A stretch of DNA of 64,000 bases. Source: Octopus vulgaris. Lineage: Eukaryota. Location of the stretch: the NCBI GenBank assembly GCA_951406725.2, contig OX597827.1, positions 70,494,001 through 70,558,000 of the forward strand. Direction: 5' to 3'. Shown here in pieces: positions 47,226-47,985 of the stretch (the stretch's first letter is position 1; each line of letters begins with the position of its first letter). Under the pieces are notes generated by a model that was not told where the DNA came from, made no database searches, and saw only the letters and a list, made by a program, of their open reading frames with translations. A program made the translations under genes and the position numbers.

Positions 47226-47985
47226 TAAGCAATAAAAGGGTTTAGCAACGAATTGCCTTACACAGACCGAATTTAGAAATAGCAGTCAAAGAGTTATAGC
47301 TATTTCTTCTACTAAAAGGGAGATCTCAGTAAAAAACACAGCAATTGGAAGGCAGACACAAACAGGTAAGAGAGAATGAATTGACGGCAATCTATCATAC
47401 AATTTTAAGTTATCTACGGATGCACGTTTCGAAATCAAGTTTTTAGGAAAGCATGAGAATTAAATATTAAATAATTCTACGTTACCCAAACTTCTTTTCT
47501 CTTCAGCGTAGAATACTATAATCATAAGTGATTATATATTGAATTTCAATATATAATCACAAATTCAATATATAATCACTTATGATTATAGTATTCTACG
47601 CTGAAGAGAAAAGAAGTTTGGGTAACGTAGAATTATTTAATATTTAATTCTCATGATTTCCTAAAAACTTGATTTCGAAACGTGCGTCCGTAGATAACTT
47701 AAAATTGTATGATAGATTGCCGTCAATTCATTCTCTCTTACCTGTTTGTGTCTGCCTTCCAATTGCTGTGTTTTTTACTGAGATCTCCCTTTTTAGTAGA
47801 AGAAATAGCTATAACTCTTTGACTGCTATTTCTAAATTCGGTCTGTGGTAAGGCAATTCGTTGCTAAACCCTTTATTGCTTAGTATTACTTAAATTTTCC
47901 TCGAATGAGGCTTTTACATGCCGAAGACTACTTGGTGTAATTGATAATTATTCCAAATTAATTAATTTCACCCTTCATTATTATG
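47226..47985. mobile_element. ~320-bp-arm palindrome carrying two divergent hammerheads, plus a ~100-bp unpaired tail
   Basis: 47226-47546 is near-identical to the reverse complement of 47561-47882. TA tracts lie on both sides. Confidence 0.9.
47595..47694 (+). ncRNA. Type I hammerhead ribozyme with extended stem II
   Basis: tctacg-CTGAAGA-gaaa..(long hairpin)..tttc-GAAAC-gtgc-GTC-cgtaga. Predicted cleavage is after C47688. Confidence 0.85.

Follow-up and report, generated by a model that had tools for sequence, protein, structure and literature searches.

A hammerhead-bearing palindrome in the Octopus vulgaris genome as a probable stump of a Penelope-like retrotransposon

Hammerhead ribozymes of Penelope-like elements (PLEs) are found in pairs located on opposite strands, 100-700 bp apart (PMC4209133), and a short palindromic stem III marks those that act as low-activity dimers (PMC4209133; PMC6765202). 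At PLE insertions, pLTRs stand head to head, their junction is palindromic and a tail may be present (PMC3846280); an inverted 5'-truncated copy and a one-sided tail within (TA)n targets have also been described (PMC8557442). The junction palindromes were interpreted by Arkhipova et al. as self-priming (PMC3846280). With regard to activity, 22% cleavage within one hour was obtained for the monomer of an axolotl motif whose helix III has 2 bp, and motifs of invertebrate retrozymes cut faster than this one (PMC7229834). In Octopus vulgaris, PLEs represent 6.83% of the genome, with 31 families classed as recently active (PMC13282606), and 235 hammerhead matches have been counted in a squid genome (PMC6962438).

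The window analysed here is a stretch of 64,000 nt of O. vulgaris DNA. It contains a near-perfect palindrome (Table 1) whose arms, separated by a spacer of 14 nt, are 98.4% identical, and whose full 657 nt fold with an energy of -536 kcal/mol. The arms differ at five places only, corresponding to two substitutions (47421/47686 and 47451/47656) and three one-base indels which all occur within runs of one base. Symmetry ends at 47882, from where the right side continues as sequence of a repeat family (see below), and the two flanks are unlike each other. The preliminary description, which had placed a near-perfect palindrome of ~650 bp in the range 47226-47985, was therefore correct regarding the structure, while positions 47883-47975 lie beyond it and are family sequence.

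This palindrome is very probably a recent, non-coding stump of an endonuclease-bearing (EN+) PLE. Traits of EN+ PLE insertions that were found at the locus are the 5'-truncation, the head-to-head inversion, the junction palindrome, the one-sided tail and the (TA)n target. The head-to-head copy, the junction palindrome and the tail carried by one arm are shared with the inverted EN+ PLE insertions of Arkhipova et al. 2013 (PMC3846280) and Craig et al. 2021 (PMC8557442), as is the location of a hammerhead near the 3' end. The (TA)n target corresponds to that of Hydra and Naiad PLEs, and a microsatellite bias of Neptune is mentioned in the discussion of PMC8557442. Differences from published PLE insertions concern the tail, of ~95 nt here versus 30-40 bp, the occurrence of a 14-nt false start at the junction and an ORF remnant reduced to four codons. 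The locus is thus built like an EN+ PLE insertion and is a candidate member of this class, its parent ORF being perceptible only as a hint at silent sites. Palindromic insertions of this kind of PLE are already known, and what the preliminary description overlooked is that the structure very probably represents such an inverted PLE end, of the published type in which the tail is limited to one side.

Table 1. Features of the palindrome and of its borders (positions in the window).
Feature	Position	Strand	Remarks
End of (TA)n tract; left copy of candidate 14-bp target-site duplication	47214-47227	+	Same 14 letters at 47982-47995
Left arm: inverted 5'-truncated element copy without tail	47226-47546	-	Begins at (TA)n tract
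Minus-arm hammerhead motif	47413-47512	-	G16.2 to A at 47421, giving AUC
Junction hairpin	47528-47560	.	Centred on AATT micro-palindrome
Extra 14-nt copy of right-arm letters 6-19	47547-47560
Right arm: sense copy, 5'-truncated, of high-copy repeat family	47561-47882	+
Probable final four codons and stop of parent ORF (Lys-Phe-Asn-Ile-stop)	47561-47575	+	Frame +0; inferred
Type I hammerhead motif	47595-47694	+	Predicted cut after 47688
One-sided tail of ~95 nt, family sequence, right arm only	47883-47975	+	Depth to ~47975 in 4/4 runs; absent from left arm
Start of right (TA)n tract; right copy of candidate target-site duplication	47982-47995	+

The case for the candidate target-site duplication is weak, a match at least as good being obtained for 3.3% of tract-end pairs drawn at random (310 of 9506). 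A consensus-like splice donor (CAG/GTAAGA) occurs at 47361-47370, with its mirror in the right arm, antisense to the hammerhead, and an AATAAA is located at the outer end of the arm with this antisense donor-like site; both may have arisen by chance.

The centre of the palindrome consists of a single hairpin whose 3' strand is duplicated in tandem (19 nt, 47542-47560 and 47561-47579), and the same 5' base is the end point of both arms. Previously, the centre had been viewed as a duplicated mini-hairpin and a plausible footprint of fold-back or template switching: it does have the look of such a scar, with one hairpin and a tandemly repeated 3' strand in place of two hairpins. A comparable symmetry might be produced by an artefact of assembly or sequencing, namely a fold-back chimera at a genuine copy of the repeat, and it is indeed the case that three of the five arm differences are run-length changes, which could be assembly errors, and that none of the listed contigs covers the entire stretch. 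A fold-back read would however be symmetric through its flanks, which is not observed here, and each arm has a private substitution relative to the family (47421 in the left arm, 47656 in the right one). Nearby palindromes built in the same way are also older, their arms having clearly diverged. Finally, the depth of bins 47527-47541 and 47542-47556 in public contigs is 11.6 and 43.4 in run X5, and 18 and 67.4 in run X16; the ratio is 4/15 in both, which, judging from these bin means, fits a contig over 47538-47556, a stretch specific to the junction, in two studies, with 47527-47537 outside of it. An artefact is thus very improbable.

Comparison with the family further indicates which arm has changed at each substituted position. 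At 47686, no alternative letter is listed for the four contig runs; GUC thus represents the state of the family, and it is the minus arm that has mutated. At 47656, the family carries C in all four runs, and there the plus arm is the mutated one. In the minus arm, the G16.2 to A change places an A opposite C15.2 and breaks the C15.2-G16.2 pair of stem III; AUC had been reported at this triplet and is indeed present, but the damage extends beyond the triplet to which it had been confined. At 47626 and 47843, both arms carry letters that only a minority of the family has and, because of these and of the equal 5' end, both arms fit a single template.

The stretch or part of it was found in 20 of the 24 listed runs (8 studies, 2 organism labels), and positions 47527-47975 were compared with the contigs of four of these, with 1543 matching contigs in X1, 4599 in X5, 1714 in X16 and 42 in X2. 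Among the 24 runs, none of those with the stretch is on record as RNA (X2 may be one), which counts neither for nor against expression. In the three DNA-like runs, the summed depth does not exceed 0-67 to the left of 47557, whereas values ranging from ~5e3 to 1.5e6 are reached from 47557 to 47975. It peaks at 47857-47886 in X1 and X16 and is lower beyond, the drop at the tail boundary being clear in these two runs and slight in X5, with the reservation that depth summed over contigs measures abundance poorly. The family stays deep to ~47975 in all four runs. A very abundant family, whose depth is not to be read as a copy number, thus spans the right arm and ~95 nt more.

On the other side, copies of the family extend 5' of 47561 with a different, non-palindromic sequence, seen as loose ends in X1, X5 and X2. 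By eye, the loose end of X1 and X5 is open over 8 codons in the frame of 47561-47575, and its six differences from that of X2 comprise four silent changes, one at a third position and one Val/Met replacement. The probability of such a coding-like variation is about 0.01-0.04 for one frame and the signal is weaker if all six are considered. In the X2 consensus, a TGA interrupts this frame ten codons before 47561, which either counts against an ORF end or marks a decayed copy. Overall, the family probably continues 5' into the end of an ORF at 47561-47575. An X2 contig that extends further upstream is identical to 47561-47842 in 281 of its 282 positions, and close siblings of this copy therefore exist; together with the arm identity, this agrees with the earlier view that the insertion is young. 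Since the family extends both 5' of 47561 and 3' to ~47975, the locus is composed of a 5'-truncated copy and of an inverted copy lacking the ~95-nt tail. The dozen C-terminal residues deduced for the parent display a loose likeness, by eye, to both the Naiad and the Hydra clades. Three motifs of the arm are missing from the PLE consensus supplement of PMC8557442 and arm motifs were not found in the supplement of PMC13282606, the parent family being absent from these two supplements as far as their searched content goes. Exact-pattern scans of metagenome contigs gave 0 matches.

These data also bear on whether the family could be a non-autonomous hammerhead retroelement, retrozyme or SINE-like, having its own RNA circle and moved by the enzyme of a PLE, in which case the locus would not be a stump derived directly from an autonomous PLE. 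Animal non-LTR retrozymes (PMC7229834; bioRxiv 10.64898/2026.07.22.740005) are likewise non-coding and ~400 nt long; the very high copy number and the lack of any ORF seen at the locus would suit such an element, and the helices (6 bp for I, 4 bp for II, and 2 bp for III with a tetraloop) resemble those of invertebrate retrozymes (PMC7229834). Unlike in retrozymes, each arm contains a single unit without a head-to-tail tandem, and no joint from the 3' end of the family back to its 5' end is listed in the four contig runs, a type of data in which presence is better shown than absence. In addition, the loose ends 5' of 47561 are unlike the 3' end and vary as coding sequence does, so that the family apparently enters coding sequence. 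A retrozyme origin is, on balance, quite improbable. Whether the palindrome could instead move as a unit, as a palindromic MITE or a fold-back DNA transposon having captured the hammerhead, was also considered given its long near-perfect inverted arms and the presence of mariner-derived inverted elements in the window (49430-50337). This is extremely improbable: the ends are asymmetric, with a tail on one side, family depth collapses left of 47557 and most copies therefore lack this centre, and in one X2 contig opposite strands of the family are joined at a different place (47772/47901).

Regarding the hammerhead itself, the plus-arm motif comprises a stem I of six Watson-Crick pairs (47595-47600/47689-47694), the core letters CUGAAGA (47601-47607) and GAAA (47677-47680), and the GUC triplet (47686-47688, C17 being 47688); CUGANGA, GAAA and an NUH triplet are thus all present, as had been described. 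Stems I and II flank the core and the motif is open at stem I, which corresponds to type I. Beyond stem I, the centroid structure has a 2x2 loop and then three further pairs. The stem II region (47608-47676, 69 nt) starts with a base of four Watson-Crick pairs, beyond which come an internal loop of 2x2 and a long extension; all three of the nested helices described earlier were recovered, with outer pairs at P 0.95-0.98. With a strict hammerhead descriptor, 47595-47694 is the sole site in the window and its best-preserved hammerhead, which agrees with its earlier ranking as best candidate, and no site was obtained in 3000 dinucleotide shuffles of the arm or across 60 shuffled windows. The match to Rfam Hammerhead_1 (RF00163) has 21.2 bits (E 0.023) and does not reach the gathering score of 34, presumably because the long stem II lowers the score; the Rfam scan of the 64-kb window gave no match at gathering score. 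Rfam miRNA matches at the palindrome centre were discarded as generic hairpin matches far below gathering.

Stem III is limited to two pairs and a four-base loop, a point on which the preliminary description was silent. Its strand, ACGUGCGU, is fully self-complementary and forms a duplex with a second copy at -8.8 kcal/mol, while in the monomer its pairs form with P<0.01 and the active fold, when forced, represents 0.2% of the ensemble, in energy models that ignore tertiary contacts. Folding thus predicts a weak stem III of the dimer-forming type, and the motif probably cleaves best as a dimer. Given that the 2-bp helix III motifs of axolotl and invertebrate retrozymes do cut, cleavage by the isolated plus-arm motif is plausible and we consider it moderately likely in vitro.

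The intact core, the type I layout, the short palindromic helix III and the occurrence on opposite strands at 100-700 bp are all common to the PLE pseudo-LTR hammerheads of Cervera and de la Pena 2014 (PMC4209133). The helix II region departs from these, with 69 nt here versus helices of 7-8 bp in PMC4209133, and the longest loop 2 entries noted in a table of PMC8557442 have ~30-35 nt. A literature search returned no retrotransposon hammerhead with a long or extended stem II, although such a shape may still be in print and motifs of the PMC4209133 supplement may bear on this point. The long stem II is best regarded as a mildly unusual feature whose shape recurs in the window, at 20709 on the minus strand and, less convincingly, at 50814 on the plus strand. 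Shuffled sequences fold as well as stem II in 10 of 300 cases for the plus-arm motif, 2 of 300 for 20709 and 80 of 300 for 50814. The first of these motifs (20622-20720, minus strand) is a type I hammerhead of an unrelated family located outside any palindrome, with a stem I of 4-5 bp, a stem II of 59 nt and a self-complementary stem III. The second is a long-spaced core within the inverted pair 50618-50924, with 57 nt between core halves, a palindromic stem III and, as indicated by the above counts, a stem II that folds no better than shuffles. That the family carries a hammerhead variant which is active, with an internal loop and an extension of ~60 nt in place of loop 2 and with the 6-bp/4-bp tertiary-contact geometry kept, is rather unlikely.

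Variant letters occur in the family at 3 of 100 places in 47595-47694 versus 30 of 281 downstream (Fisher p 0.02), and none falls at the 39 core and stem places of the hammerhead. Selection on the ribozyme was considered and is not established by these figures, because 47561-47594 is equally free of variants and 0 of 39 has a probability of 0.14 at the in-region rate. The hammerhead is an ordinary passenger of the family.

At the locus, the two motifs point outward and a transcript entering from either side yields the antisense arm first. In folds of transcripts ending at 47720, P(stem I) is 0 with starts at 47226, 47400 and 47500 and 0.4-0.7 with starts from 47530 to 47590, those at or after 47530 keeping stem II at P 0.98. 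According to this model, the ribozyme would be freed only if transcription began no more than ~65 nt upstream of the motif. The prediction that read-through RNA masks the ribozyme thus holds: such RNA would fold first into a ~320-bp hairpin, and the locus should for this reason be silent. By contrast, the claim of a live ribozyme was not supported, as the antisense arm comes first in both directions and stem III belongs to the weak kind that forms dimers; in the folding model, a live hammerhead at 47226-47882 is unlikely. Because core and stems match a family of very many copies, non-inverted copies are better ribozyme candidates.

A functional locus, with the hairpin acting as a switch or as a source of small RNA and the ribozyme cutting when transcription starts at the centre, would find some ground in the release of stems I and II with starts at or after 47530 and in TATA-like heptamers on the plus strand at 47550 and 47569. 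Such a heptamer is however common in AT-rich repeat DNA, the region is young, AT-rich and dense in repeats, no Pfam match to a host gene was obtained among 300 of the 312 frames, and similar palindromes nearby are decaying, all of which makes a function of this kind extremely improbable.

These other palindromes were sought by self-BLAST of the window, which gave 24 inverted pairs spaced by less than 4 kb; 11 were inspected and the 10 with short centres were measured, leaving aside the mariner-derived pair and widely spaced dispersed repeats. Outward-facing hammerhead cores were found in six of the ten (47229, 48964, 51279, 52019, 40585 and 50618), several being decayed and that of 50618 occurring in one arm only, and no convincing core was seen in the remaining four. 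In nine of the ten, a (TA)n run is found no more than 12 nt away on one side only, the distance on the other being 45-256 nt, as compared to 7.6% per side for random points. The insertion pattern published for PLEs thus recurs within the window. The head-to-head palindromes 48964-49313, 51254-51596, 40576-40764 and 52017-52146 contain decayed or minimal hammerhead cores and have a (TA)n contact on one side and a longer extension on the opposite one. By eye, stem III at 40693 and at 51478 is shared with hammerheads of Hydra-clade PLEs in the PMC8557442 supplement, as is stem I at 40693. Two insertions, 41073-41263 and 51212-51596, belong to one hammerhead family and both carry the tail on the inverted arm, which is short in the former and long in the latter. 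No PLE protein domain (RT or GIY-YIG) was detected by Pfam in 300 of the 312 filtered frames of the window, the other 12 being located at 61296-62543; the matches were to transposase, HTH and DUF domains only.

Several additional elements were observed in the window. The mariner-derived inverted structure lies ~1.5 kb from the palindrome and includes a Mos1-type HTH match (49731-50123, minus strand, E 7.9e-13), while transposase-like remnants occur at 34457-35345 and 29796-30020. A 183-aa frame without Pfam match (8954-9505) resembles the C-terminal part of a LINE (RTE-like) ORF. At 24593-25248, two tandem units of 330 bp are 100% identical and coding-like on the minus strand, on which they are followed by a decayed hammerhead-like core near 24500 and then by (TA)n; this could be the end of a partial-tandem element or an assembly duplication. 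A weak match to Rfam Hammerhead_HH9 (22.3 bits versus 52, E 0.11) is located at 46349-46424, 800 nt left of the palindrome. Finally, decayed minimal hammerhead-like cores of another dispersed family were found at 10224-10290 (minus strand), 10933-10999 (plus) and 60879-60946 (plus).

While the anatomy of the palindrome, the multi-copy family and its extension on both sides are directly visible, the parent ORF is inferred, and so is the most likely succession of copying events, which is as follows. The endonuclease of the element would nick the (TA)n tract, and reverse transcription proceeding from the tail inward would copy the last ~415 nt of the RNA, comprising the tail, the pseudo-LTR with its hammerhead and the last ORF codons, and stop at 47561. 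At this truncation point, the nascent DNA end with its AATT micro-palindrome would fold back or re-anneal, be extended by 14 nt in a false start, slip, and restart at the very end. The inverted copy would then be synthesised back to the tail boundary and joined to the other (TA)n end.

Two-strand priming at two start sites is a rival route that, by analogy, might lead to the same structure. It is allowed in vitro by PAc, a Poseidon element of Anolis (Frangieh et al. 2024, PMC11167929) which also resembles the present case in its AT-rich targets and in having two kinds of 3' end, one with the tail and one lacking it. This route accounts well for the tail but not for both arms stopping at the same base. 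The PAc ribozyme needs protein for cutting and is dispensable for insertion in vitro (PMC11167929).

The locus itself is ordinary retroelement debris. Long-stem-II motifs such as the one it carries would be missed by descriptors with spacers of 7-17 nt, and recur in unrelated families of the window, with 59 nt at 20709 and 57 nt at 50814; if a long-stem-II hammerhead proved active, broader descriptors would be called for when counting ribozymes in animal genomes. If the parent were a Naiad element, the description of this clade as being without canonical hammerheads would need revision. The value of the palindrome lies in its being a clean and young record of the PLE turn-around: the arms have equal 5' ends, and the micro-palindrome, the false start of 14 nt and the tail on one side are all preserved. 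Regarding the way in which PLEs build inverted ends, junctions such as this one bear on the choice between snap-back and two-strand priming.
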